51,868 nucleotides of DNA from positions 1 through 51,868 of the forward strand of contig JAHLWH010000122.1 in assembly GCA_019058015.1 (NCBI GenBank), in the 5' to 3' direction. The stretch comes from Promethearchaeota archaeon (GTDB taxonomy: Archaea; Asgardarchaeota; Lokiarchaeia; Sigyniarchaeales; SOKP01). A program made the translations under genes and the position numbers. Below the pieces are notes generated by a model. That model was not told the origin of the DNA. It worked only from the letters and a program-made list of their open reading frames with translations, and ran no database searches. Of this stretch, positions 8,935-24,105 are shown piece after piece (the stretch's first letter is position 1; the number at the start of each line of letters is the position of its first letter).

Positions 8935-9885
8935 TTATATTGGTCTGAAATATTCAATATCCGTAATTCTCTTTCTTGGTTTATCTTTAAAAACAGCTTC
9001 AACTCTCATCCCTGGTTTCAACTTTTTTGGATCGCTTTCTTTTATTATGTGCACTATTTCTGTGTTAGAACCATCAAGTGTGATTAATGCATAAGCAAAG
9101 GGCGGTTCTAAAGGCATAACGGGGGTAGAATGCGTTACAACTGTAAAACCCTTAACTGAGCCTTGATTACTAACTTCAACCCACTCATCCATTTTTTCAA
9201 AGCAATTAAAGCATATCATCTTGGGCGGAACATAAACCTTTCCACACTTTGGGCACTTAACCCCCATGATTTTATTATTTTTTCCAATTTCAGTTATAAA
9301 TCTTTCAACATATGCTCCCGCCACATGCTTATAAGGAACCTTTATTCTGCCTCTAAAAACTTTCTCTTCAATATCTTCAACCATTTTTTCAACCTTTTTT
9401 GGTTTTGGTTCTTCTCTAATTATTTTATAATATGGAATATCTCCTAAATTACCTTCTCTCTCTTCTTTGAAAACTGCTTTAACTCGCATCCCAACCCTTA
9501 ATTTTGTATGATCTACCTCATCAATGAAATGCATGGTATAAGTATCGACACCATCTAATTTAAACAGTCCATATCCGTAAGGAAAAGGTCTTAATCCACC
9601 TGTTTGAGGATCTACAAATGGATAGTTAACCACAGTGAATCCTACAAGAGTCCCAGTGTCATATAATTCAATAAGTCGTGTCATTTCCACCATACAATCC
9701 GCACAGACTGCTCGAGGCGGGAAATATACTTTCCCACATTTTGGGCATTTACTTCCGTGTAATTTTTTATTCTCCTTTAGTTCTTTAAAAAATTGTACTG
9801 ATAATTTCCCCATAGAATATCTGTAAGGAAGGTCTGTTTTCCATTTAATTTGAAATACTTTTTCTTTATCTTTACCTCTACTCAT
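8935..9885 (-). CDS. Tandem DUF35 (Zn-ribbon/OB-fold) protein, partner of the thiolase-like aldolases
   Basis: Two copies of GxKCPKCGKVYxPP..CxxC plus OB fold. The true start is probably ATG at 9885, with SD GAGGTGA at 9897-9891. Confidence 0.9.
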   Translation of the reverse strand: MSRGKDKEKVFQIKWKTDLPYRYSMGKLSVQFFKELKENKKLHGSKCPKCGKVYFPPRAVCADCMVEMTRLIELYDTGTLVGFTVVNYPFVDPQTGGLRPFPYGYGLFKLDGVDTYTMHFIDEVDHTKLRVGMRVKAVFKEEREGNLGDIPYYKIIREEPKPKKVEKMVEDIEEKVFRGRIKVPYKHVAGAYVERFITEIGKNNKIMGVKCPKCGKVYVPPKMICFNCFEKMDEWVEVSNQGSVKGFTVVTHSTPVMPLEPPFAYALITLDGSNTEIVHIIKESDPKKLKPGMRVEAVFKDKPRKRITDIEYFRPI

Positions 9886-9890
9886 GATAA

Positions 9891-11057
9891 TCACCTCAAG
9901 GGTTCCTTTCCTAATATTAGAATTTCTGTCCATAGACTGCCTCCGAATCCCATAGCTAAGGATTTTTCTACATCAGGAATTTGTCGTTTATCTCCTCGCC
10001 CCATAACTTGGATTGCCGCCTCTGCAACACGAATTAATGCAGTAGCACCAATAGGATTAGTACTCAATACACCTCCTGATGGATTTACCGGTAATTCTCC
10101 ACTCATTTGAGTAATACCCTCATCCAGTAATTTTCCACCTTCTCCAAATTTACAAAAACCTAATGCTTCAGTCCAAGCAAGCTCACTCCAAGAAGTGGGT
10201 TCATATATTTCTGCAACATCTAAATCTTTTACCGGATCTGTAATTCCAACCTTTTTATAAGCTTTTCTAGATGCAATTGTTGCAGTTGGAAGATCAAACA
10301 TTGCATCATCAGTACCAAAGGTGTAATAATGGGCAGTTTCTACAGCTTGAATCCATGCTGGATTATCGGTTATATTTTTCGTTTCTCCTTCATTAGCATA
10401 AATAACTGCACATGCACCTTCGCTCTGCGGACAACAATCATGAAGCCTCAATGGATATGAAATAGTTTGGGATTTCATAACATCCTCAACTGTTAGATCA
10501 GGCATTTTTAAATGAGCAAATGGATTATTCGCAGCGTTTCGACGATTTTTTACGGTAACCCTTGCAGCTTGTCCAGGAGTAATTCCATATTTATGTTGAT
10601 ACATACTAGCCATAAGAGCGAGTGGTCCTAAAGCTCCTGCTAAAGAAGGTCTTTCCCATACTGGATCGAAAGCTGTGATAATACCAGTTGTGGCACCACC
10701 TTCTTGCAATTTTTCCCAACCTACGATTAAAACTTTATTATATATTCCTGATGCCACATTATGATACCCGCATATCGCTAACGAGGAGCCTGTAGTTCCT
10801 CCTGTGGCGACTTTAACAACTGGTTTTAGATATCCTGGTGCTGCATCTATTCCGCACCACATCTCAGAGAAATTAATTCCTTCGAAGTGATCCATATTTC
10901 CAATTATTATTGCATCAATATCATCAGGTGCGAGTTGAGCATCATCAAGAGCCATTTTTACAGCTTCATATATCATTTCGGGGATATTAACATCTCTTCT
11001 TTTGCTTCTATGCTTCGTTTGACCTATACCTACTATTGCAACATCATGTTTTGCCAT
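9891..11057 (-). CDS. ltp3: Thiolase-fold (SCP2-thiolase type) protein, Ltp3-like
   Basis: GIGQTKHRSKRRDV..DHFEG..KPVVKVATGGTTGSS..WEK..VNPSGGVLSTNPIGA. Lacks the catalytic Cys of true thiolases; resembles actinobacterial Ltp3. Confidence 0.75.
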   Translation of the reverse strand: MAKHDVAIVGIGQTKHRSKRRDVNIPEMIYEAVKMALDDAQLAPDDIDAIIIGNMDHFEGINFSEMWCGIDAAPGYLKPVVKVATGGTTGSSLAICGYHNVASGIYNKVLIVGWEKLQEGGATTGIITAFDPVWERPSLAGALGPLALMASMYQHKYGITPGQAARVTVKNRRNAANNPFAHLKMPDLTVEDVMKSQTISYPLRLHDCCPQSEGACAVIYANEGETKNITDNPAWIQAVETAHYYTFGTDDAMFDLPTATIASRKAYKKVGITDPVKDLDVAEIYEPTSWSELAWTEALGFCKFGEGGKLLDEGITQMSGELPVNPSGGVLSTNPIGATALIRVAEAAIQVMGRGDKRQIPDVEKSLAMGFGGSLWTEILILGKEPLR

Positions 11058-11060
11058 ATT

Positions 11061-12218
11061 CTATACACCTCCATCATTTCCAAATATAAGCACACAGTTT
11101 CCTTGGGAGCATATTCCATTCATTCCATTTGCTAAACCAATTTTAGCGTTGGGGATCTGTCTTTTATCTGCTTTACCCATTAATTGTAGAGCAATTTCTG
11201 CCACGCGAATTAAACCATTTGCCATGGTTGGATTACTTGATAGAACACCTCCCGAAGGATTAACGGGTATATTTCCGGTCATTTCTGTTTCACCATTTTC
11301 AATAAATTTTCCACCTTCACCTTTCCCACAGAATCCTAATGCTTCGTAACTCATTAATTCATGATATGAAAACAAATCATAAACTTCTGCTACATCAATT
11401 TCTCTGATTGGATCAGTAATTCCAGCCATTTTATAAGCTTCTTTAGCAGCTAATTCTAGTCCAATTAGATCCGTCATTGTTCTATGCCCTAAATAATAAG
11501 CATCAGTACAACTACCGTATCCCATAAGCCAAACAGGTGAGTCTGTGAATTTTTTAGCAATCTCTTCTTTTGTTAAGAGCATTGCAACTGCACCATCAGA
11601 GAGTGGTGGTAAATCAAGTTCCTTTAAAGGATATGCTATCATTGGAGAGAAAAGGATGTCCTCAATCGTAACTGCTTCTTGTAGATGTGCATATGGGTTA
11701 TTAAGTGCATTTTTTCGATTTTTTATAACAACCTTGGCTGCTTGCTCCTCTGTAATTCCATACTTATTCACATACATATTAGCCATTAAACCAGCAGTAG
11801 ATATTTGATCTAATCCTAAAGCTCTTTGATAAAAAGGATCAAAAATGGAGTTATTTATAAGATATTGATCTCCTTCAGAGCATTTGCAATGGGATACAAC
11901 CATTACTGTATCATAGTATTCTGATAAAATTCTCATAGCTCCATATATATATGCAAAGGCTCCATCTCCTGAAACTCTTGATTCTGATTTTCCAATAGAT
12001 CCCACTGCATCTTGGATTGCCATATCAGCGATCGTTCTTCCATCGTTAAAATCATTGGAACTAGTAATTACACATCCTATATCGTCATTTGTTATTCCCA
12101 AATCATTATAAAGCTTCTTAACAACCTCAAAAACAAGTTCTGAATATGTCTGATCGATTTTATCTGCTTCATATTTTGTTTGGGCTGTGGCAACAATGGC
12201 AACATTATGTTTTGGCAT
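11061..12218 (-). CDS. ltp4: Thiolase-fold protein, Ltp4-like
   Basis: LYNDLGITNDDIG..SSNDFNDGR..ESRVSGDGAFA..VNPSGG. No catalytic Cys; paired with the Ltp3-like gene. Confidence 0.7.
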   Translation of the reverse strand: MPKHNVAIVATAQTKYEADKIDQTYSELVFEVVKKLYNDLGITNDDIGCVITSSNDFNDGRTIADMAIQDAVGSIGKSESRVSGDGAFAYIYGAMRILSEYYDTVMVVSHCKCSEGDQYLINNSIFDPFYQRALGLDQISTAGLMANMYVNKYGITEEQAAKVVIKNRKNALNNPYAHLQEAVTIEDILFSPMIAYPLKELDLPPLSDGAVAMLLTKEEIAKKFTDSPVWLMGYGSCTDAYYLGHRTMTDLIGLELAAKEAYKMAGITDPIREIDVAEVYDLFSYHELMSYEALGFCGKGEGGKFIENGETEMTGNIPVNPSGGVLSSNPTMANGLIRVAEIALQLMGKADKRQIPNAKIGLANGMNGICSQGNCVLIFGNDGGV

Positions 12219-12469: not shown

Positions 12470-13291
12470 ATGAGTGAATTTGATTTTCAGGATATCCTTT
12501 ATGAGAAGGAAGATAATGGTATTTGCACAATTACATTCAACAGACCTGAAAGAAGAAATGCAGTAACTTATTTAACCTTTTATGAAATTGGGCTGGTTCT
12601 AGAAGATATGGAAAAAGATAAAAATGCTAAAGTTTTAATAATTACTGGAAATCCAGAAGGGAGAGCCTTTTCATCAGGGGGTTATTTCAAGCCATCAATA
12701 TTGAATAATATAAGAGATGAAATTAAGCAAGAAATTGATTTAATGGATATCGCTCAAAAAAAAATCTGCATGAAATTTTGGAAATTTTATAAGCCTGTTA
12801 TTGTAGCCATTAATGGTTTGGCTATAGGCGGGGGAATAACAATGCCCTTATCAGGTGCAGATCTAATTTTTATGGCTGAAGATGCTTGGCTAGGATTTTA
12901 TTTTGGAAAGAGAGCCATTATACCAGAATTTGGTTCCTCTTTTATTTTGCCATTTTATGTAGGGTTTCAAAAAGCAAAAGAAATTGTATATTTTGGCGAA
13001 AAAATATATGCTCAAGAAGCTTATGAACTTGGACTTGTAAATAAAGTCTTGCCTAAGGACGAACTAATTCCATACGCTCGAGAACAAGCTTTACGGTTGA
13101 TTCCTCCTAAGGGTCCAAGTTTGTCAATAAAATTAATGAAAAAAACCATGCATGCTTATTTCCTTGAAATCATGGATAAAACTTTAGATTTGGAAAATAG
13201 AGGTCTTAGAAAAGCTTTTACTTCATACGATTTTAGAGAATCAATGAACGCACTTAAGGAAAAAAGAGACCCAGTATTTAAAGGGAAATAA
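12470..13291 (+). CDS. Enoyl-CoA hydratase/isomerase (crotonase) family protein
   Basis: ITFNRPERRNA, AFSSGG, KPVIVAINGLAIGGG, IPEFGSS, AQEAYELGLVNKV, EKRDPVFKGK. Confidence 0.93.
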   Translation: MSEFDFQDILYEKEDNGICTITFNRPERRNAVTYLTFYEIGLVLEDMEKDKNAKVLIITGNPEGRAFSSGGYFKPSILNNIRDEIKQEIDLMDIAQKKICMKFWKFYKPVIVAINGLAIGGGITMPLSGADLIFMAEDAWLGFYFGKRAIIPEFGSSFILPFYVGFQKAKEIVYFGEKIYAQEAYELGLVNKVLPKDELIPYAREQALRLIPPKGPSLSIKLMKKTMHAYFLEIMDKTLDLENRGLRKAFTSYDFRESMNALKEKRDPVFKGK

Positions 13292-13334
13292 ATTAATTCA
13301 ATCGATTTTTCAAAATTTTTATTTCTTATTATTA
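13136..13334 (+). repeat. Direct repeat copy 1: last 52 codons of the crotonase gene plus ~43 bp of 3' flank
   Basis: 13136-13291 aligns ungapped to 16472-16627 with 12 mismatches in 156 bp (manual count). Similarity continues past the stop codon. Confidence 0.95.
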
Positions 13335-13567
13335 CATTCAATTAAAATAATTAAAATTTTAGTTGAAATTATAATATCGATGTAAGAGACTTTTTTCAAT
13401 TCATACTTGAAGATTTACATGAAATAGAAAAAAAATAGAATTAAAAGTTTTTCCTCAGACATTTAAAAATTTCTATTAATTATCGCAGACTGGGGTTTTT
13501 TATTTATAAGGCAATATTAATATTTAAGATAAATGGTTAAATTTATTATATTCAAGGAGATATAGAA

Positions 13568-14632
13568 ATGAACATTAAATTAGATAAAATCAAGCATCCT
13601 TGGTACGATCCTAGAGAGGATGTTGACGACAAATATATTGAGGAATTAGCGGAAAGCATCAAAAAAGATGGCTTATTAAATCCTATAATAGTTAAAAGTA
13701 CAGAAGATGGAATGTACGAAATCATAGCAGGAGGTCATCGATTAAGAGCGGTTAAAAAATTGGAATGGACTGAAATTGAAGCTAAACTAATGGATATTGA
13801 GGAATCTGAAGCATCGATTCTCGCTATTAAAACGAATATACTACAAAAGAATTTGACAGACATTGAAGAGGGTAAGGCAATTAAAAGAATAATTGAAAAA
13901 TTCAGTTATACTCAAAGCGAGATTGCAGATAAATTAGGGAAGAGTCCAAGTTGGGTTAGTAATAGGTTAGCTTTGATTCTCAATGTTTCGCAAAGTGTTC
14001 AAAACGCCTTAAAGGAAGAGAAGATATCAACTTCTCATGCAGTACTTTTATCGAAACTCAGTAAGAGAGATCAAGATAATTTCTTAAAATATATTATATC
14101 GAAAAAATTGAATATAAACGATGCTAGAGATGCGTTGAAAAAATATGAAAATAAGACCATATACACCATAGGGTATCAAGGGAAAGATTTAGATACATTT
14201 ATTGAAATATTAAAAGATAATAAAATCGACCTACTTATCGATATAAGAGAATCTGGTAAGAGTACTAGAAAACCAGTATTCAATTCAGAAATTTTAAAGA
14301 GAGAATTTAGCAAAACTAACATAGAATACATTCATAAACAAAAATTAGGAGTAATTTACGAAAGCAGAGTCCCTTACATTAAAGGATATATTTCACACGA
14401 TTGTTTTAAAGGTTGGTATGAATGGCATTTAGACGATATCGACTTTAATATCGAAGAATTTGTGAATTTTCTCAAAAATAATGGAACATGCTGTTTAATG
14501 TGTATGGAAGAATTCTCTAAACCAAAAAAACAACAAAAATACTATTGCCATAGAGATTTTTTGGTAGAAAAGATTTTAAATTTTAAGTCAGAAGATCCAT
14601 TATATTCCTTTGACGAGAGAATAGACTTGTAG
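13568..14632 (+). CDS. ParB/Spo0J (CTPase domain plus HTH) fused to a C-terminal DUF488 domain
   Basis: ParB: ELAESIKKDGLLNPIIV..YEIIAGGHRLRA and HTH TQSEIADKLGKSPSWVSNRL. DUF488: IYTIGYQG..LIDIR..YIHKQKLG..CLMCME..CHR. Confidence 0.85.
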   Translation: MNIKLDKIKHPWYDPREDVDDKYIEELAESIKKDGLLNPIIVKSTEDGMYEIIAGGHRLRAVKKLEWTEIEAKLMDIEESEASILAIKTNILQKNLTDIEEGKAIKRIIEKFSYTQSEIADKLGKSPSWVSNRLALILNVSQSVQNALKEEKISTSHAVLLSKLSKRDQDNFLKYIISKKLNINDARDALKKYENKTIYTIGYQGKDLDTFIEILKDNKIDLLIDIRESGKSTRKPVFNSEILKREFSKTNIEYIHKQKLGVIYESRVPYIKGYISHDCFKGWYEWHLDDIDFNIEEFVNFLKNNGTCCLMCMEEFSKPKKQQKYYCHRDFLVEKILNFKSEDPLYSFDERIDL

Positions 14633-14722
14633 GATGCCAAAATAATTATTAAATTTATACACAGTCAGTTTTTATAAACATTAATTACTTCTTATTATAA
14701 AGATTGTATTTAGGGGATTTTA

Positions 14723-15547
14723 ATGAGTTGGGAAAAAAGAGAAATTCTTTTAATAGCTAAAACTTATCCAGAAAGAAGTCAAAAATACGGAAATACAGTT
14801 TGTACTGCGGGGATAATGGAAGATACAAATGAATGGGTTCGAGTTTATCCCATTAATTTAAATGTTTATCTTCGTAAAAAATTAAAGAAATTTGTTCGAT
14901 TTAAAGCAGAGATAAGAAAAAACAAAAGTGAAATGATAAAAAGAAAAGAATCATATAAAATTCGAGAGAAATCAATAAAAATAACCGACGATAGTCTAGT
15001 AGATCCGAAAGTAAAAGGTGTCTGGGAAGAAAGAACTAAAATATTAGAAAAAAGTCTTTCCGAATCTATGGAATTTTTAAAAAATCAATTTGAAATTAAA
15101 AGAATGTCATTAGGGATAATCAAGCCACATCAAAAATCAATAAAATTTTTAATAGAAAAACCCGTTGATAATGTAGAAATCGATGTTATTAAAGAAGTCC
15201 AATTAAATCTTTTTGGAGAACAAGTAAGAAAAGTAGATAAAATAGAACATGCATTTTCTTACCGATATAAATGCAATATAGAAAATTGTAAAGGTCACAA
15301 AATGATATGTATCGACTGGGAATTATTAGAATCATTTAGAAAGTGGAGAAAAACATACAAAACTCCACAAAAATTGGAATTTGCATTAATTAATAGATAT
15401 AACGACTGGATGATTAAAGAACGAGATCTATATCTTGTTGTTGGCACAATCTGGCGATATAAAACTTGGATTATAATTGGCCTATTTTATCCTCCAAAAA
15501 AAGGACAAAAAACGCAGAAAAAACTTAGTTCATTTTTTAAAAAATAG
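14723..15547 (+). CDS. Conserved hypothetical protein of the DUF488-associated 'KTYP..S.KY..TVCTAG..W.R.YP' type (dual-OB-like)
   Basis: N-terminus LLIAKTYPERSQKYGNTVCTAG..EWVRVYPI; C-terminus YRYKC..C..H..IDWE..DLYLVVGT..WIIIGLFYPP. Confidence 0.65.
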   Translation: MSWEKREILLIAKTYPERSQKYGNTVCTAGIMEDTNEWVRVYPINLNVYLRKKLKKFVRFKAEIRKNKSEMIKRKESYKIREKSIKITDDSLVDPKVKGVWEERTKILEKSLSESMEFLKNQFEIKRMSLGIIKPHQKSIKFLIEKPVDNVEIDVIKEVQLNLFGEQVRKVDKIEHAFSYRYKCNIENCKGHKMICIDWELLESFRKWRKTYKTPQKLEFALINRYNDWMIKERDLYLVVGTIWRYKTWIIIGLFYPPKKGQKTQKKLSSFFKK

Positions 15548-15589
15548 AAATGTGAGATGATAAAATAATAATGGGGAAGAATTTATATT

Positions 15590-16390
15590 ATGACCAACCG
15601 ATGTCTTAACTTAAATTATCGAAATCTAAGAAATGGGCAGAGATTATATTATTCTTTTAACCACGATGAAGCTTTACTCTCTTGGTATTATGAGAAAAAT
15701 AAATTAAATAAAGGTAATTTTTTCCTTATAACAATAGATGCCCACATAGATTGGACTGATCTGGCTAAAGAAGAATTAGTAGAACTAAAAAAATTTAAAG
15801 AACGACAAAAAAATCTTGATAATAATAATGAGGATTTAAGTGAATCAGATGACCCACACCTACAAAACTTATCTGAATTAAGGAAAATTATTGAAAATTC
15901 ATTTAGAGGGGATAATGTCTCATTTATTGTGGCTTCAATGGAATTAGGATTAATAGATGATGTATTAATTATATCTCCTAATATAAATGATCTTGAAATC
16001 CCAGAAACTTATGAAGATATGCAAGGAATTCAGCACAAAATTTATCATATACATTCTATTAGAAGTTTATGGTATCCATATGGGAGAGCAGTATTGAATG
16101 ATGATTTCAACAAAAGATGTCTGGAGATTCGGAATCATCTATATTCGAATCCATATATTGTAGACTTTGATTTAGATTATTTTACTTATTCTCGTGATAA
16201 TAAGGAATTTGTTATTAATGAAAAACACTTTAAAATAATTTTTAACGATTCAAATTTTTATAATTTATTATCTAAGGCAAGTGTTATCACAATTGCATTA
16301 GAGCCAGGTTGTTGTGGTGGTGTTCAAAATAGTGCGATTATTTTTCACAAAATAACCAGTTCTATTTCAAATCGATTAGGAAGTTTGTAA
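15590..16390 (+). CDS. UPF0489 family protein (arginase/deacetylase-like metallohydrolase fold)
   Basis: NHDEALLSW, TIDAHIDW, VDFDLDYF, ITIALEPGCCGG. Confidence 0.75.
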   Translation: MTNRCLNLNYRNLRNGQRLYYSFNHDEALLSWYYEKNKLNKGNFFLITIDAHIDWTDLAKEELVELKKFKERQKNLDNNNEDLSESDDPHLQNLSELRKIIENSFRGDNVSFIVASMELGLIDDVLIISPNINDLEIPETYEDMQGIQHKIYHIHSIRSLWYPYGRAVLNDDFNKRCLEIRNHLYSNPYIVDFDLDYFTYSRDNKEFVINEKHFKIIFNDSNFYNLLSKASVITIALEPGCCGGVQNSAIIFHKITSSISNRLGSL

Positions 16391-16471
16391 TTTTTTTTTG
16401 AAATTTTTTTTAAAAAATATTACTCACCCTTCTTAGATAAAGACCAGAATATTGTAAATTTTAATAAATCA

Positions 16472-16670
16472 ATGAAAAAAAACATGCATTCTTATATCCT
16501 TGAGATCCTAGAAAAAACTTTAGATTGGGAAAATAGAGGTCTTAGAAAAGCTTTTACTTCATATGATTTTAGAGAATCGATGAATGCACTTAAGGAAAAA
16601 AGAGACCCTGTATTTAAAGGGAAATAAATTAATTTAATTGAATTTCTAAAATCTTAATTTCTAATTATCA
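16472..16670 (+). pseudogene. Direct repeat copy 2: orphan crotonase 3' fragment (51 aa plus stop at 16627) and flank
   Basis: MKKNMHSYILEILEKTLDWENRGLRKAFTSYDFRESMNALKEKRDPVFKGK*, versus MKKTMHAYFLEIMDKTLDLENRG... in the intact gene. Confidence 0.92.
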
Positions 16671-16803
16671 AAATCATTTAATATAAATGAAATAATCCTC
16701 TAATTTTAAAAAAAAAATTCACCTATTTGATATTTTAAAAAAAAATATTAAAACGAGAATAAATTAATTATGACAAAAAATATATTACTGGTAATAAAAA
16801 AAA

Positions 16804-17214
16804 ATGACAAAGATTAAAATTTTATCGGAAGAATGGGTTGAAGCTTTTGGTAAAGCAATCAATGCGAATCCAAATTATAAGCCATCAGCGCTTACTTGGG
16901 AAGGGGATATGCTTCTCTTAATTGAACCTAGTGGGAAATTAGATCATGAAGTAAGGATCTTTATTGGCCTTTACCACGGTGAATGTACAGGAACTAGACT
17001 ATTAAAAGAAGGAGAAGAGGTTGACACTCCATATATTCTATCTGGTCCTTATGATAATTTTGTGAGAGTTATGAATAAAGAATTTGACCCTATTCAAGGA
17101 GTTATGTCTGGTAAGTTAAAACTGAGCGGTGATATGGCAAAATTGATGAGACATGTTCAAGCAGCTAAAGAAATTGTGAATAGTCTTCTAACGTTCGAAA
17201 CAGAATTTTTATAA
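16804..17214 (+). CDS. SCP2 sterol/lipid-binding domain protein
   Basis: SEEWVEAF..IN.NPNY..WEGD..GLYHGEC..DPIQGVMSGKLKLSGDMAKLMR. Confidence 0.88.
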   Translation: MTKIKILSEEWVEAFGKAINANPNYKPSALTWEGDMLLLIEPSGKLDHEVRIFIGLYHGECTGTRLLKEGEEVDTPYILSGPYDNFVRVMNKEFDPIQGVMSGKLKLSGDMAKLMRHVQAAKEIVNSLLTFETEFL

Positions 17215-17286
17215 AAAGCAAGAGAATTTTCATTTAGTTTTTTTTTTAATTTAATAGAACAATAAAAAACATCATAGGAAAAAAAA

Positions 17287-18486
17287 ATGTGGTACTTTTA
17301 TAGTCCTAATATTATATATGGTGAGGATGCACTAAATTTCTTAGAAAATATTCCGGGAGATAAATGTTTTATTGTCACTGATAAAGTAATGGAGGAGTTG
17401 GGTTATTTAAAAATTTTAACAGATAAACTGGAAAAATACGGAAAACAGTATAATGTATATAATGAAATACTCCCTAATCCTCGAGAAACTCATGTAGCAG
17501 AAGCAAGAGAAATGTGCAATTCTTACACTCCTGATTTAATTCTTGCTTTAGGAGGAGGTTCGGTTATGGATGCTGCAAAAATGGTTTGGTGTTTCTATGA
17601 ATTTCCAGAGCTTTCACTTGATGATATCCATCCATTTAGACCCGACCTTCATAATATGGGCAAAAAAGCAAAATTAGTAGCCATACCAACTACTTCAGGA
17701 ACTGGAGCAGAAACAACATACGCTGCAATTATATCAAAATTTGAAAATGATATCTGGAAAAAATTCCTATATGCTCATAAAGGAATAGTTCCTACATATG
17801 CTATAGTAGATCCAATATTCCCCGTAGGAATGCCTTCTAATTTAACTGCTGATACAGGTTTTGATGCATTAGCCCATGCGATTGAAGGAATGGGCTCTGA
17901 GTGGAGAAATGAGTTCAGTGATGCATTGGGGGTTAAAGCTATTGAATTAGTTTTTAAATATCTGCCAATTGCCATTAAAGAAGGTAAGAATATGGAAGCT
18001 AGAGATTACATGCATCAAGCAGCAACTATGGCTGGATTAGCTTTTGGTAATGGAAATGTTCATATAGGACATGGAATGGGTCATAGTTTGGGAGCAATCT
18101 TTCATATTCCTCATGGAAGGGCAGTTGGTGTTGTGCTTAGTTATGTTACACAATTCTGTTTAAATAATCCTGATGAAAAAGATAAATCTATAGAAATTTA
18201 TGCAAAATTAGCGAAACAATTAGGATGGGCAAACTGGGATGAAGATAATAAAAAGGCAGCCTTTACTGTAATCGAGAAAATCAAAGAGCTCCAAAAAGAG
18301 GTCGGAATTCCAAATAAGATTCAAGATTTAGGAATTTCTCGCGAAGATTTTGATAAGAATTTAGATATGCTAATAACTTTATGTTATGAAGATGCAACTA
18401 TTGGAATGGTCCCAAGAAGCGTAAATCCAGAGATATTTAAAAATTTATTTACATATGCTTATGACGGGAAAAATATCGATTTTTAA
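17287..18486 (+). CDS. Iron-containing alcohol dehydrogenase
   Basis: ALGGGSVMDAAK, IPTTSGTGAE, DALAHAIE, HGMGHSLG..HIPHG. Confidence 0.93.
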   Translation: MWYFYSPNIIYGEDALNFLENIPGDKCFIVTDKVMEELGYLKILTDKLEKYGKQYNVYNEILPNPRETHVAEAREMCNSYTPDLILALGGGSVMDAAKMVWCFYEFPELSLDDIHPFRPDLHNMGKKAKLVAIPTTSGTGAETTYAAIISKFENDIWKKFLYAHKGIVPTYAIVDPIFPVGMPSNLTADTGFDALAHAIEGMGSEWRNEFSDALGVKAIELVFKYLPIAIKEGKNMEARDYMHQAATMAGLAFGNGNVHIGHGMGHSLGAIFHIPHGRAVGVVLSYVTQFCLNNPDEKDKSIEIYAKLAKQLGWANWDEDNKKAAFTVIEKIKELQKEVGIPNKIQDLGISREDFDKNLDMLITLCYEDATIGMVPRSVNPEIFKNLFTYAYDGKNIDF

Positions 18487-18579
18487 ATAATTTTTTTTTA
18501 TTTTTTTCCTTTTTTATCCATAATTGTAAATTCCCATCAAAAAGACAAAAAATAAAAATCAAAACAGAAATATCTTTTT

Positions 18580-20133
18580 ATGCAAGAAAAAATTTTTGAT
18601 GAAAACCGAGATATTTCGACTTATGAAGTTATTGTCGTTGGTGCTGGGCTAGGAGGACTCGGAGCTGCTTGTCAGCTTGCTCTTTTAGGGAAAGAAGTTT
18701 TATTACTCGAAAAACACAACGTACCGGGTGGGTTTGCAACTTCTTTCGTTAGGGGGCGATTTGAGTTTGAAGGAGCTCTGCATGAATTAAGTGATATTGG
18801 GGATGAAACTAATAAAGGAGGTCTTTATAGATACTTAGAAAAAATTGGGATACTCCCCGATAAGCTTAAGTTCAATTATGTTCCAGAGTTTTATCGGAGT
18901 GTGTTTCACGATGGATATGATGTTACTATTCCATTTGGTTTTGAGGAATATACTAATAAATTGATAGAACAATTTCCTGCCGAAAAAAAGGGAATAGAAG
19001 AATTTATGGAAATGTGCAAAGCAATGTTAGCTGGGATTCAGTACATAGCATCTAAGGGCGGTAAATTTTCACCAGGTGAAATCCTTAAAGTACATCCGTG
19101 GCTTGCACGCGTCTCGGGAATCACGCTTCAAGAACTTTTTGATAAATTTTTCAAAGACCAAAAATTAATGTGTGTAATAGCTCAACTCTGGGGATATCTT
19201 GGTTTACCACCGAATAGATTGAATGCATATGCATATATTGCAATGTTAATATTTTACTTAAAATGGGGAGCAGCCTTTCCAATAGGACGATCTCATGCAT
19301 TTACAAGTGCAATGATAAAATCTTTTGAAGAATTAGGAGGGAAAGTAAGATTAAATGCCTTGGTGAATCGTATCCTTGTGGAAAACGGACGAGTTGCTGG
19401 TGTCGAACTTTTAAATGGCGATATTTATCGATGTGAGGCAGTCATATCAAATGTCAATCCAATATGTACGGCAATGAAAATGTTACCACAAGAAATTTTG
19501 CCAGAAAGTTATAAAAAGAGTATTTATGCTCCAGAAATTGGAGTTTCTGCATTTTCAGTCTATATAGGATTAAATGCATCACATAAAAAATTGGGATTTA
19601 ATGCTCATGAAACTTTTATTAATACAACTTACGATACATCCCATGCTTTCGAAACTTTCACAAAAATTGAAGCTCCAATGTATATGGTTGTAGCGTGTTA
19701 TAATCACATTGATGAAACTATATCTCCCCCAGGAACAACACAACTTGTTCTCACTACTCTACAAATGGGCAAACTTTGGCAAGGAGTTTCTCCTGATCAA
19801 TACCACAATATTAAAGATGATATTGCAGATAAAATGATTGCAATAGTTGAACAATATCTCTGCCCAGATTTACGCGATTATATAGAAGTAGCAGAAGCAG
19901 CAACCCCACTTACATATTATAGATACTCAAAAAATATGGAAGGCGCAATATACGGATACACCCAAGACGTCATGAATGGACCAATGCTTCGATTAAAAAG
20001 CCGGGGAGCCATTCCCGGATTATATCAAGTGGGAGCTTGGACTAATTTCGGCGGAGGATACTCAACCACAATCCTTGGTGGCCGAATCGCCGCAGGAATG
20101 TATTTAAAAGATATAAAGGAGGGGAAGTGGTAA
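18580..20133 (+). CDS. Phytoene dehydrogenase / retinol saturase-like FAD oxidoreductase
   Basis: VVGAGLGGL..LLEKHNVPGG.ATSF.RGRFEFE, ATPLT..RY..GAIYG, GLYQVG. Confidence 0.85.
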   Translation: MQEKIFDENRDISTYEVIVVGAGLGGLGAACQLALLGKEVLLLEKHNVPGGFATSFVRGRFEFEGALHELSDIGDETNKGGLYRYLEKIGILPDKLKFNYVPEFYRSVFHDGYDVTIPFGFEEYTNKLIEQFPAEKKGIEEFMEMCKAMLAGIQYIASKGGKFSPGEILKVHPWLARVSGITLQELFDKFFKDQKLMCVIAQLWGYLGLPPNRLNAYAYIAMLIFYLKWGAAFPIGRSHAFTSAMIKSFEELGGKVRLNALVNRILVENGRVAGVELLNGDIYRCEAVISNVNPICTAMKMLPQEILPESYKKSIYAPEIGVSAFSVYIGLNASHKKLGFNAHETFINTTYDTSHAFETFTKIEAPMYMVVACYNHIDETISPPGTTQLVLTTLQMGKLWQGVSPDQYHNIKDDIADKMIAIVEQYLCPDLRDYIEVAEAATPLTYYRYSKNMEGAIYGYTQDVMNGPMLRLKSRGAIPGLYQVGAWTNFGGGYSTTILGGRIAAGMYLKDIKEGKW

Positions 20134-20137
20134 AATC

Positions 20138-21325
20138 ATGATGGAAGATATTAAAAAATATCAAAAAGCCGAAAAATTAAAGAAATGGCGAGATCAAGTT
20201 GAACCAACACCTTGGTATTATGATGGGTTAGAAAACCTATGCAACCGACTCCATCCCCAGAATCAGTTGCTAAAAGTTACTGATATAGAACAACTCTCAA
20301 GAGATACTAAATTGTTTCGATTAGTTTCCGTAAAACCTAAGCAATTATTGGCACCATTCCGTGCCGGTCAATATATTGGCTTTACAATAGAAATAAATAA
20401 TGTCAGAACAAGTCGCCCTTATTCGCTTGTATCATCCCCGAATCAATTAGCGTACTATGAATTAGGCATCAAGAAAAAAGAAGGAGGATTTGTAAGCCCA
20501 TACCTCTTTGAAAACACAAAAGTTGGAGACATTATTGAAGCCACCGAACCCATGGGAAATCTTTACTATAATAGACTTTTCCATGGAAAAAACTTAGTAT
20601 TTATTGCAGGAGGTTCCGGTTGTACTCCATTTATCTCAATGTTGCGAGATATCTCAGAGCGGGATCTTCCCCTTAATGTCTGGATGTTATTCGGATGCTT
20701 AACTGAGGAAGATATTTTATTTCGAAATGTATTAAAAGATATCCAAAAACGACGGTCATATATCAAAGTTGTAAATATTCTCTCGGAAGCAGGTTCTGAA
20801 TGGACCGGAGAATCTGGATTTATTACAAAAGATAAAATTTTAAAAGTAATTGGCTCCATCGAGAAAAAATTCTTTTATATTGTCGGGAATCGACCAATGT
20901 ATCATTTTGTTTTAGATGAATTAAAAGAATTGGGTGTCCCACAACATCGTATCGCACATGAGGCTTTCGGAGTGCCAGATGACATAACTCAGATTATGGG
21001 ATGGCCAGTAGAGATTGATACATCTAAAAAAATTCAAATTACTATTGATTTTAGGCGATATGGAAAGATCGAACAAAAAGTAATTGAAGCATCATGTACA
21101 GAGCCCATATTAAACAGCCTCGAACGTGCAGAACTGAAAGAACTCGAAATTAAAAGTGGGTGTCGCTCTGGGGAATGTGCTCTCTGCAGGACGAAACTCG
21201 TATTCGGTAAAATTTTTATACCACCTGAAGTAACAACCAGAGAGGCCGATAAAAACTATAATTTTATCCACCCATGCATTTCTTATCCAATCACTGACAT
21301 TCACTTAAATTTAAATGAAACCTAA
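20138..21325 (+). CDS. FAD/NAD(P)-binding reductase with C-terminal 2Fe-2S ferredoxin domain (PaaE/KshB-type architecture)
   Basis: FRAGQY..RPYSL..GFVS..IAGGSGCTPFISM, then CRSGECALC..C. Confidence 0.88.
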   Translation: MMEDIKKYQKAEKLKKWRDQVEPTPWYYDGLENLCNRLHPQNQLLKVTDIEQLSRDTKLFRLVSVKPKQLLAPFRAGQYIGFTIEINNVRTSRPYSLVSSPNQLAYYELGIKKKEGGFVSPYLFENTKVGDIIEATEPMGNLYYNRLFHGKNLVFIAGGSGCTPFISMLRDISERDLPLNVWMLFGCLTEEDILFRNVLKDIQKRRSYIKVVNILSEAGSEWTGESGFITKDKILKVIGSIEKKFFYIVGNRPMYHFVLDELKELGVPQHRIAHEAFGVPDDITQIMGWPVEIDTSKKIQITIDFRRYGKIEQKVIEASCTEPILNSLERAELKELEIKSGCRSGECALCRTKLVFGKIFIPPEVTTREADKNYNFIHPCISYPITDIHLNLNET

Positions 21326-21479
21326 AGCTTTTCTTTTTTATTTCTTTTTTTAATCGTTTTTCAATTTAGATCAAAATTAAGAAAAGAGAGTCTGAAATTA
21401 TCAAGTTTTAAATTTAATTTGATCTAATATATAGTATTATCTTTTTTAATTATTAAAAATAAAAAATGATGATTTAAAA

Positions 21480-23177
21480 GTGAGTGTAGAAAAAATTTGG
21501 TTAAAATCATATGATAAACACGTCCCTGAAACCCTAACCTATTCAAATGATGATGTCGGAACCGCTATGAGTAAAGCGATGAATAGATTCCCAGATAGAA
21601 TTGCATTTCATTTCATGGATTATACGATGACTTATAAAGAACTATTTGAATTATGTCAAATATTTGCCTCGTTTTTGCAAAAAAATGGTTTAAAAAAGGG
21701 TGATGTCGTTTCTGTAAATCTTGCAAATATGCCCCAATACTTAATCGCTGTTTATGGGACTTATCTAGCAGGTGGTACTGTTGCTGGATGCTCTCCCCTC
21801 TTAAGTGCTGATGAGATGGCTTTTCAGTTAAATGATAGTAGTGCTAAATTTTTAGTTACTATGGATATTATTTACGCAAAAAGAATGCCCCAAATTCTGG
21901 ATAATTTACCAAAACTCGAAGTTATCATTCCTACAAATATTTCTGAATATATGGGGTTCTCTAGTTTTAAAGTATTTATGGGTAAGTTAATAAAAAAAAT
22001 TCCTAAGGGGAAAATAAAACCATGGCCAGGAAAAAAAGTAGTTCCTTTTCAAGAAGTAATGACCACTCCAATCGATATAAAAAAAGTTGAAATTGACCCT
22101 AAAAAAGATTTAGCATTAATTCAATATACAGGTGGAACCACTGGAACTCCCAAAGGAACTGAAATTACTCATTTTAATTGGATAGCGAATATGCATCAAT
22201 TTGATGTATGGCTTAAGAGAGAAATAGGAACTGATGTTGTTCTTTGTGCTTTTCCTTATTTCCACATCGCCGGATTCTTTGTTGGGTTATTCTTGACGTA
22301 TATTTCAGCCTCATCTATTATTATAGCAAATCCACGTGACACAGATCATATAATTCATGAAATGATCGATAAAAAAATTACTGTTTTTGGAAATGTGCCT
22401 ACTTTGTTTTTAATGGTTCAACGTAATCCAAAATCCAAGGAAATCCCAGATGAAATATTGGATAACATTACTTTATATGTTTCTGGAGCTGCACCCTTTC
22501 CAGCTGAAGCAGTTAGAGATTTTGAAAAAGATTTTCATTCGGCAAATAAGTTCGTAGAGGTTTATGGTATGACCGAAACAGCAGTTTTGGCTACGGTAAA
22601 TCCTGCATTTGGCAAGAAGAAGATTGGAAGTGTTGGTCTTCCATTACCCGATACAGAGATAAAACTTGTGGATGTAGAAACCGGAGAACAGGTTGAACTC
22701 GGTAAGCCTGGTGAAATATTGATAAAAGGGCCACAAGTAGTACGAGGATATCATAATAAACCTGATGCTACAGCAGTAACTTTTACTGAGGGATGGATAC
22801 ACACAGGAGATGTAGGTATTTTTGATGAAGAAGGATATTTAAGAATAGTTGACCGCACAAAAGACATGCTGAGTGTATCCGGATTTAAGGTTTATAGTGT
22901 GCATGTTGAAGATGTAATGACCAAACATCCAGACATACAATTAATGGCAATCATTGGACTCCCTGATAAAGACAGGCCGGGAAGCGAAATTGTGAAAGCT
23001 GTAATTCAATTAAAAGAAGGAATTGAAGCAACTGATAAAGTGAAAGAAAACATTAAGAAATTTGCGCAGGAGAATCTGGCAAAGTATGAAGTTCCAAAAC
23101 AATGGGATTTTCGTGATGAACTCCCATTAACAGCAATTGGTAAAGTGCTGAAAAGAGCACTTAGAGAAGAAAAGTAA
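21480..23177 (+). CDS. fadD: Long-chain acyl-CoA synthetase (AMP-forming)
   Basis: YTGGTTGTPKG, YGMTE, HTGD, DRTKDM, GKVLKR. Confidence 0.92.
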   Translation: MSVEKIWLKSYDKHVPETLTYSNDDVGTAMSKAMNRFPDRIAFHFMDYTMTYKELFELCQIFASFLQKNGLKKGDVVSVNLANMPQYLIAVYGTYLAGGTVAGCSPLLSADEMAFQLNDSSAKFLVTMDIIYAKRMPQILDNLPKLEVIIPTNISEYMGFSSFKVFMGKLIKKIPKGKIKPWPGKKVVPFQEVMTTPIDIKKVEIDPKKDLALIQYTGGTTGTPKGTEITHFNWIANMHQFDVWLKREIGTDVVLCAFPYFHIAGFFVGLFLTYISASSIIIANPRDTDHIIHEMIDKKITVFGNVPTLFLMVQRNPKSKEIPDEILDNITLYVSGAAPFPAEAVRDFEKDFHSANKFVEVYGMTETAVLATVNPAFGKKKIGSVGLPLPDTEIKLVDVETGEQVELGKPGEILIKGPQVVRGYHNKPDATAVTFTEGWIHTGDVGIFDEEGYLRIVDRTKDMLSVSGFKVYSVHVEDVMTKHPDIQLMAIIGLPDKDRPGSEIVKAVIQLKEGIEATDKVKENIKKFAQENLAKYEVPKQWDFRDELPLTAIGKVLKRALREEK

Positions 23178-23348: not shown

Positions 23349-23702
23349 TTGCTGAATCTTAAAGAAATCTTGAAAAAAAAAGCTGAAAGAAAAAGAAAAT
23401 TACTTTCATCTTTGGAGTCTCTAATAGATCAATTAAAAAATCTTGGAGCATTAAAAATCATTCTTTTTGGATCCCTTGTAAGAGATGAAATAGATATAGA
23501 TAGTGATCTCGATTTATTTGTAATCATGCCTTCAAATATGACCGGAAAGAAATGGTTGAATTTAATATACAGTGAAGTTGAAAGGGGAATTTCATCAGAT
23601 ATAATTGTGTTTAATCTTGAAGAATTTAACAAAAATTTGCCTTATAGTTCTTTTTTGAATAACATCGTTAACTCAGGAAGAGTTATATATGAAAAAACCT
23701 AA
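23349..23702 (+). CDS. Minimal nucleotidyltransferase (MNT), antitoxin of an MNT-HEPN pair
   Basis: ILFGSLVRDEIDIDSDLDL (GSx10DxD); overlaps the HEPN gene. Confidence 0.85.
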   Translation: MLNLKEILKKKAERKRKLLSSLESLIDQLKNLGALKIILFGSLVRDEIDIDSDLDLFVIMPSNMTGKKWLNLIYSEVERGISSDIIVFNLEEFNKNLPYSSFLNNIVNSGRVIYEKT

Positions 23703-24105
23703 TAAAGAAGAAGCATTGAGATGGTTTACTCAAGCACAGGATGAATTTCTCGATTCAGATGATTTAAGAAAAAGAGAGCGATTTTATCTTGCCTTATTTC
23801 ATTTCCAACAAGCCGCAATAAAAGCACTTAAAGCATTTTTATATTTAAAAGTGAAATCCATAGAAGTTTTTTTTACACATTCCATTAATGATTTACTAAA
23901 TGTGGCAATTGAAATCGATACAGAATTCAAGGAAATCGCATCCGTGAAGAAGTTAGACCAATATTATATTCCAACAAGATATCCAAACGGACTTCCCAGG
24001 GGAATACCTTCTAGATATTTCGATGATCCCAGAGAAGCAAAGGATGCAATGCTACTGGCTAAGAAATTGATTGATCTGGTTGAAAAAAAATTGAAACAAG
24101 AATAG
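23689..24105 (+). CDS. HEPN domain protein
   Basis: A.RW..QA..E, FHFQQAA.KALKA, THS, LDQYYIPTRYPN. Confidence 0.85.
   Translation: MKKPNKEEALRWFTQAQDEFLDSDDLRKRERFYLALFHFQQAAIKALKAFLYLKVKSIEVFFTHSINDLLNVAIEIDTEFKEIASVKKLDQYYIPTRYPNGLPRGIPSRYFDDPREAKDAMLLAKKLIDLVEKKLKQE

Follow-up and report, generated by a model that had tools for sequence, protein, structure and literature searches.

An integrase-less islet in a Promethearchaeota contig probably carries a ParB-fused PDC-M19-type gene pair and an independent gene for a predicted arginase-fold hydrolase

The gene content of a small insertion was characterized in a 51,868-nucleotide (nt) stretch of DNA from a Promethearchaeota archaeon (GenBank assembly GCA_019058015.1, contig JAHLWH010000122.1, forward strand), referred to here as the window. 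Three genes, called genes 1, 2 and 3 in their order of occurrence, make up the cargo of this islet, which is probably an integrase-less insertion with two independent cargo modules, a PDC-M19-type pair (genes 1 and 2) and a separate gene 3. Gene 1 encodes a fusion of ParB and DUF488 domains, gene 2 a predicted protein with two OB-like barrels and gene 3 a predicted metallohydrolase of the arginase fold. Linkage between genes 1 and 2 spans phyla, and no linkage of gene 3 to either of them was found in the loci and contigs compared. The initial annotation had joined all three genes into one candidate system for defense or DNA processing, a view that the comparison of loci given below does not support. 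Source names of the close relatives of all three gene products point to Promethearchaeota or Lokiarchaeota.

Profile matches identify genes 1 and 2 as an apparent archaeal, ParB-fused form of the already named candidate PDC-M19. The gene 2 product matched the PADLOC model PDC-M19B over its full length (PDLC04508, E=4.7e-47, residues 5-263 on profile positions 3-266 of 269). The match of the gene 1 product to PDC-M19A (PDLC04505, E=1e-20) was confined to its DUF488 half (residues 182-340 on profile positions 135-285 of 294 only); the N-terminal third of the model was unmatched, and the N-terminal 190 residues of the protein, a ParB nucleoside triphosphatase fold followed by a helix-turn-helix (HTH) domain, lie outside the match. 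The pairs of Gordonia phages and archaeal plasmids match the same PDC-M19 models. As in PDC-M19 the two genes are adjacent, although they are co-directional here and convergent in the bacterial plasmids and phage examined. Novelty, which was to have been supported by the lack of a PADLOC hit, is thus lost for the pair: it is already catalogued as a candidate, and the archaeal fusion adds the ParB nucleotide switch. Burroughs and Aravind are said to have discussed the pair in 2023 as a DUF488-based DNA-end-processing conflict system. The pair of DUF488 and dual-OB proteins has been catalogued without a known activity or phenotype. Since the archaeal pair is joined to a ParB nucleotide switch, it offers a tractable test of clamps gated by cytidine triphosphate (CTP) outside chromosome segregation, and the fusion is carried by cultivable hosts (plasmids of Saccharolobus, Sulfolobus and Haloquadratum) as well as by Asgard lineages.

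The ParB-DUF488 fusion named in the initial annotation was confirmed by Pfam, which detected ParB_N (residues 2-91, 2.2e-19), HTH_ParB (residues 95-194, 1.2e-21) and DUF488 (residues 208-334, 4.3e-13; 50.4 bits against a Pfam cut-off of 22.2) in the gene 1 product. All three domains were present in 42 of its best 44 relatives, the remaining two being short, and the source names of these 44 were Promethearchaeota, Lokiarchaeota, Helarchaeota, Heimdallarchaeota and Thermoplasmatota. The first 192 residues aligned with structures of Noc and ParB in the Protein Data Bank (PDB; best match Noc 7ng0, E=3.6e-32), and the PR, GxxRxxA and N..IEE motifs of these CTP-dependent DNA clamps are kept. The protein differs from ParB and Noc in having GGHRLR where Noc has GERRWR, in having no evident parS and in having no ParA partner, no ParA-like open reading frame (ORF) being found in the islet with the ORF list and Pfam. 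Pfam also detected no ParB C-terminal dimerisation domain, and DUF488 stands in its place. In archaea, a DUF488 enzyme appears to have taken over the C-terminal position of the dimerisation domain in a nucleotide-switch protein of the ParB type. In a 2025 preprint that surveys ParB-fold fusions, CTP binding in a DRaCALA assay is reported for an archaeal 'DUF488-HTH' fusion with the ParB fold (10.1101/2025.10.10.680097). In the DUF488 half, the residues invariant in the gene 1 family were D225, R227, S229, C312, E314 and C327-H328-R329; they include the invariant cysteine and CHR motif of DUF488 (PF04343) and look like an active site. This half is set apart from other DUF488 proteins by its fusion to ParB and by the lack of a match to the Pfam 'Active DUF488-N3 subclade' (PF22751) at E<=0.01, which the bacterial and phage DUF488 partners do match. 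A sequence search with this half against PDB chains gave no match.

The gene 2 product begins with AKTYPERSQKYGNTVCTAG...WVRVYP and further contains a C-x4-C-x2-H motif. It belongs to no Pfam or NCBIfam family and had no match in a sequence search of PDB chains; its 327 homologues were distributed among archaea and bacteria. Its AlphaFold2 model (predicted local distance difference test score, pLDDT, 88.8) was compared with known structures by Foldseek, which revealed two OB-like barrels and matches to RPA of Pyrococcus (8oej, E=8.1e-6), HIN-200 domains, CST and LEF-3. Foldseek probabilities for these tandem-OB matches were 0.97-1.00 and template modelling (TM) scores were low, 0.21-0.46. The Pfam family DuOB (PF22557) did not match the protein at E<=10; one of 39 relatives matched it (6.5e-5), and a neighbor cluster in the Atlas carries DuOB. 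These structural matches and the single DuOB-positive relative uphold the earlier designation of the protein as dual-OB-like, and the model predicts a tandem-OB protein. A literature search on 'DuOB' and 'dual OB' found nothing relevant. Apart from the missing DuOB match and the low TM-scores, the gene 2 family differs from DuOB, RPA and HIN-200 proteins in its own invariant residues. Those kept across archaea, bacteria and phages are C27 (in TVCTAG), R74, W101 and D198-W199-E200, and they may hint at more than would be expected of a passive DNA binder. In the 39-row alignment, both cysteines of the C-x4-C-x2-H motif were kept in about 22 of the 39 relatives and the histidine was at least 90% conserved. 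The motif of the putative zinc site named in the initial annotation is thus present in this protein but is not a feature of the family.

Co-location of the pair in Asgard archaea was assessed by a proxy, the size match of the longest contig per cluster among the best 120 matches of each search. Eleven relatives of gene 1 and 11 of gene 2 lay on contigs of equal size (4321, 32318, 6284, 9397, 20542, 9324, 7829, 18410, 3188, 2386, and 4427 nt). On plasmids, a DUF488 gene directly adjoined the gene 2 homologue in 18 of 22 records; pSOG2 has no such gene, and three records (Calothrix AP018292, Streptomyces NZ_CP107767, and Gloeocapsa NC_020051) were left out of the adjacency reading. The complete fusion of ParB_N, HTH_ParB and DUF488 adjoined the gene 2 homologue on Saccharolobus shibatae pBEU9E1, Sulfolobus islandicus pSOG1 and Haloquadratum walsbyi PL100, the homologue on PL100 being upstream and divergent (A2 profile, E=2.5e-22). 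In bacteria and Gordonia phages, the DUF488 protein was free-standing (140-230 amino acids), without ParB, and its gene was usually convergent with that of the gene 2 homologue. Plasmids pSOG1 and pSOG2 encode an identical gene 2-family protein (WP_012386971.1); pSOG2, which is a natural deletion variant relative to pSOG1, has neither the ParB-DUF488 gene nor the regulators upstream of it, and an integrase gene lies directly upstream of its gene 2-family gene.

Several neighborhoods give the pair a defense flavor. The pair of Gordonia phage Eviarto is flanked by the immunity repressor and the integrase, the copy on a Pseudomonas plasmid has a HEPN/Toprim gene as its neighbor, and DNA methyltransferases and a DUF262 gene are found near the pair on Haloquadratum PL100; together with the PADLOC candidate listing, these contexts suggest a role in defense. 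Action against mobile genetic elements, as proposed in the initial annotation, is plausible for the pair, though unproven, and is not supported for the three genes together. Genes 1 and 2 could instead serve the mobile element itself in ParB-like maintenance, establishment or anti-defense, for example by protecting or processing its own incoming single strands or DNA ends, which we consider considerably less probable than a two-module islet, if the foremost of its competitors. Such a role fits the 11 of 22 gene 2 plasmids that were typed as conjugative, the location of the pair among regulators and adjoining an integrase on pSOG1 and pBEU9E1, the proximity of the Rhizobium pRL8 copy to a large helicase gene and a toprim/DUF3991 gene, the Burkholderia pYS1 copy adjoining a KfrA_N protein and an integrase, and the partition-protein label that public records give to the gene 1 product. 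It is at odds with the missing ParA partner and dimerisation domain, with bacterial versions that have no ParB at all, and with the islet's lack of any gene for replication, transfer or integration that the pair could serve. The Gordonia phage pair, too, occupies the lysogeny region beside the repressor; prophage defense genes are commonly found beside the repressor in actinobacteriophages.

If the islet consists of two modules, the ParB/HTH half of the gene 1 product would bind DNA, and CTP binding would close it into a sliding clamp. The clamp would slide along the DNA with its cysteine-dependent DUF488 domain until it meets an end or another lesion, which DUF488 would process. The gene 2 product would bind DNA of an invading or replicating element where it is damaged or exposed as single strands, and would recruit or license the DUF488 enzyme. 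We infer for the pair the dependence on CTP, the DNA-end substrate, the binding of single-stranded DNA and the anti-virus role. The second module, the gene 3 product, would be an arginase-fold hydrolase with a binuclear metal site that stands alone, probably co-transcribed with the pair but not a conserved partner of it. In a more far-reaching proposal, offered tentatively and of doubtful standing, the CTP-gated clamp of the ParB type is the DNA-surveying arm of an immune system common across archaea, Asgard archaea included, and carries a rhodanese-phosphatase-like DUF488 domain to the ends of invader DNA marked by the tandem-OB partner, with an arginase-fold hydrolase recruited here as a third arm. 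That last element, the recruitment of the hydrolase in this lineage, is improbable when taken by itself.

The gene 3 product appears to be a divergent, UPF0489-like metallohydrolase of the arginase fold, as judged from its AlphaFold2 model (pLDDT 85.6). The top Foldseek match was the peptide arginase OspR (8brp, E=1.7e-7, TM-score 0.55), followed by arginases and agmatinases; identity to solved structures was 9-14%, with a TM-score of 0.55 at best. A profile of the gene 3 family also detected 8brp by sequence (E=0.0084). The Pfam family UPF0489 (PF12640) matched the protein below its cut-off (E=0.036, 14.9 bits against 27, residues 24-56 only), and 9 of the 11 family members matched it at E<=0.01 (best 4.7e-7); NCBIfam gave no match. 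Invariant in the 11-member family were H25-D26, D50-x-H52-x-D54 and D192-x-D194-x-D196, as were the IDAHID and DFDLDYF segments of the gene 3 product. We take these motifs to be the ligand pattern of binuclear ureohydrolases. Since all metal-ligand motifs are kept, the gene 3 product is predicted to be active. Of the assignment to a UPF0489 hydrolase in the initial annotation, the arginase fold and the invariant DAHxD and DFDLDYF motifs stand, whereas the protein itself stays below the UPF0489 cut-off. It shares fold and motifs (H-D, DxHxD, and DxDxD) with ureohydrolases, OspR and UPF0489 proteins, and differs from them in its low identity and in its surroundings: no polyamine genes were found near gene 3, and no genes for precursors or maturation of ribosomally synthesized and post-translationally modified peptides were found in the islet, in the window or among the neighbors in 41 loci with gene 3 relatives. 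A word-indexed search found 10 non-self relatives of gene 3, and an exhaustive profile search found 523 representatives at E<=1e-3.

Gene 3 is probably independent cargo. A genome scan with the gene 3 alignment gave 43 loci in bacteria and archaea, all with distant relatives only (24-43% identity). Genes 1 and 2 were detected by tblastn in none of these 43 loci within 10 kb, and a search of their 1,989 ORFs with the gene 2 profile, and by phmmer with the products of genes 1 and 2, gave nothing at E<=1. Conversely, the 11 plasmid and phage loci retrieved with the pair gave no match to the gene 3 profile, and tblastn of gene 3 in the plasmid and phage collections gave no match. None of the 10 gene 3 relatives shared a contig size with any gene 1 or gene 2 relative among the best 120 matches per search, while genes 1 and 2 shared 11 sizes, and seven of the contigs with both genes, 6-32 kb long, had room for a gene 3 relative. 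On the archaeal plasmids the third gene is another one, which encodes 163-168 amino acids and belongs to no family. These findings speak against a single three-component system, in which the ParB-DUF488 protein would track DNA, the dual-OB protein would bind it and the arginase-fold hydrolase would be the effector or a reset enzyme. Such a system is unlikely in our judgment, even though the three genes are co-oriented and closely spaced as the sole cargo between the repeats, gene 3 keeps its metal-ligand motifs and is probably active, and the trio could be specific to this lineage. Complex prediction for the products of genes 1 and 2 with that of gene 3 gave a score of 0.05, which weighs neither way.

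Several observations nonetheless weigh against two separate modules or against the function proposed for the first of them. The closest relatives of gene 3 (42-90% identity, from Asgard metagenomes) lie outside the 43 loci examined. One of them, P0002, is 90% identical to gene 3 and lies on a contig of 3184 nt, and a gene 2 copy there could hide in the window's own 90% cluster. Gene 2 is only 42 nt from gene 3, with no terminator-like site found between them, and the two genes are therefore probably co-expressed. The match of contigs by equal size is an indirect test of linkage. Across 22 relatives of the gene 1 product, only G55, R58 and A61 were invariant within the ParB arginine-patch stretch; R58 is the sole invariant arginine of the GERRxR patch, and CTP binding by the gene 1 product is therefore not assured. 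No site stood out in a palindrome search of the islet for parS-like sequences, and the palindromes present were short and AT-rich, as expected at 28% guanine plus cytosine (GC). The frequent conjugative typing of gene 2 plasmids fits a benefit to the plasmid as well as it fits defense. A literature search for the term PDC-M19 found no paper that contains it and no experimental test, and a cold-seep study assayed other PDCs and, in its accessible part, not PDC-M19 (10.1101/2024.09.26.614923).

The relatives of gene 3 were solitary and often lay among restriction-modification or abortive-infection genes or on mobile elements. Neighbors were compared for two ORFs per side at 41 loci (141 proteins; L015, with the same layout as L014, L042, with no ORF-level match, and one protein of 2314 amino acids were left out). 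At 10 of the 41 loci a neighbor matched a PADLOC defense model at E<=1e-10. These neighbors were a type I methyltransferase and specificity subunit (L002), AbiJ (L010), type I restriction enzymes (L021 and, together with PDC-M24B, L030), a type II methyltransferase (L027), HEC-06 and a type I methyltransferase (L028), a PD-T4-6-like kinase (L033), HEC-05 (L035), a Ppl/mad3-like ATPase (L037) and a Schlafen-type protein (L039). Not counted as defense neighbors were those of L018 (a cysteine desulfurase beside NifU) and of L031 and L036 (desaturase, TatD). The gene 3 family is absent from PADLOC, and its contexts suggest solo defense-island genes that PADLOC does not list, a leaning that we treat as a lead and not as a result. 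The family is small, often near restriction and Abi genes, and provides a separate, stand-alone candidate.

Two further contexts of gene 3 relatives were recognized. Eight betaproteobacterial loci (L011, L013, L014, L015, L016, L018, L021, and L024) share an upstream gene that encodes about 358 amino acids, and KfrA_N was detected in the six that were scanned. A KfrA_N protein also adjoins the DUF488/gene 2 pair on Burkholderia plasmid pYS1 (L052:6323-7369), and gene 3-type and pair-type cargo may occupy the same slot in a backbone of plasmids or integrative and conjugative elements. Eight other loci (L003-L006, L012, L020, L023, and L025), from Wallbacteria and other uncultured bacteria, form a separate clade in a non-defense context, where one or two SH3_3-domain proteins come after the gene 3 relative, together with a protein of about 700 amino acids without a family. 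This context may indicate that the fold acts on a substrate in the cell envelope.

The islet is an insert of about 3.1 kb between two direct repeats, and its features are listed in Table 1. Genes 1 and 2 are separated by 90 nt (14633-14722) and genes 2 and 3 by 42 nt (15548-15589), and the three co-oriented genes fill the space between the repeats; coordinates and repeats thus agree with the initial description of three genes that make up the whole cargo. No further ORF of at least 50 amino acids was found on the plus strand between the repeats, and the ORF list and Pfam revealed no integrase, replication or transfer gene in the islet.

Table 1. Coordinates of the islet genes, the target gene and the flanking repeats in the window
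Feature	Position	Strand	Description
Gene 1	13568-14632	+	ORF of 354 amino acids
Gene 2	14723-15547	+	ORF of 274 amino acids
Gene 3	15590-16390	+	ORF of 266 amino acids
Enoyl-CoA hydratase gene	12470-13291	+	Intact; Pfam ECH_1, E=3.5e-48; integration target; last ~160 nt inside left repeat
Left copy of 228-nt direct repeat	13130-13357		Attachment (att)-like boundary; 3' end of enoyl-CoA hydratase gene
Right copy of 228-nt direct repeat	16466-16693		Holds displaced ECH_1 fragment of 51 amino acids (16472-16627)

A repeat search and pairwise alignment showed that the two copies are 88% identical, with an exact core of 24 nt around the stop codon. This layout is the hallmark of integration at the 3' end of a gene by an element carrying a diverged version of that same end. 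The window contains no transfer RNA gene and therefore no att site of that kind. The islet has a GC content of 27-29%; around it, values were mostly 26-39%. A sigma-70 promoter scan found 21 sites against 23.8 expected, with a model that does not apply to archaea. A relative of gene 1 (P0132, 99% identical) was found on a contig of 3072 nt, and this contig and that of the gene 3 relative P0002 are close to the islet in size, as breakage of assemblies at the repeats or the existence of a free circle would produce, either of which may be the case.

The site of insertion also bears on whether the three genes are housekeeping genes of DNA repair or adduct removal that lie together by chance. A role in nucleic-acid repair would suit both the DUF488 and the OB fold, and 86 plasmid records have DUF488 genes, in most cases without gene 2. 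The locus, however, was inserted into a lipid and acyl-CoA cluster with duplication of the target ends, and the pair is patchily distributed across archaea, bacteria, plasmids and phages and is thus typical of accessory rather than core genes. We regard this explanation as highly improbable, and the DNA-adduct removal put forward in the initial annotation found no support.

Around the islet, the window is devoted to lipid and acyl-CoA metabolism, with two thiolase-like proteins, a ChsH2-type OB/zinc-ribbon protein, SCP2, an iron-containing alcohol dehydrogenase and four acyl-CoA synthetases; its annotated proteins do not form a defense island. The acyl-CoA cluster that the islet interrupts (8935-12218 on the minus strand and 16804-23177 on the plus strand) contains a duplicated ChsH2-type OB/zinc-ribbon protein, the two thiolase-like genes, the enoyl-CoA hydratase gene, SCP2, the iron-containing alcohol dehydrogenase, a flavin adenine dinucleotide-dependent oxidoreductase and an acyl-CoA synthetase. 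At 23349-24105 on the plus strand, a nucleotidyltransferase gene (Polbeta/NTP_transf_2, 117 amino acids) overlaps a HEPN gene (138 amino acids) by 14 nt. The nucleotidyltransferase matches PADLOC models PDC-S09 (5e-9) and PDC-M05A (5.8e-6), and the two genes appear by their domains to form a toxin-antitoxin-like pair of the MNT/HEPN type.

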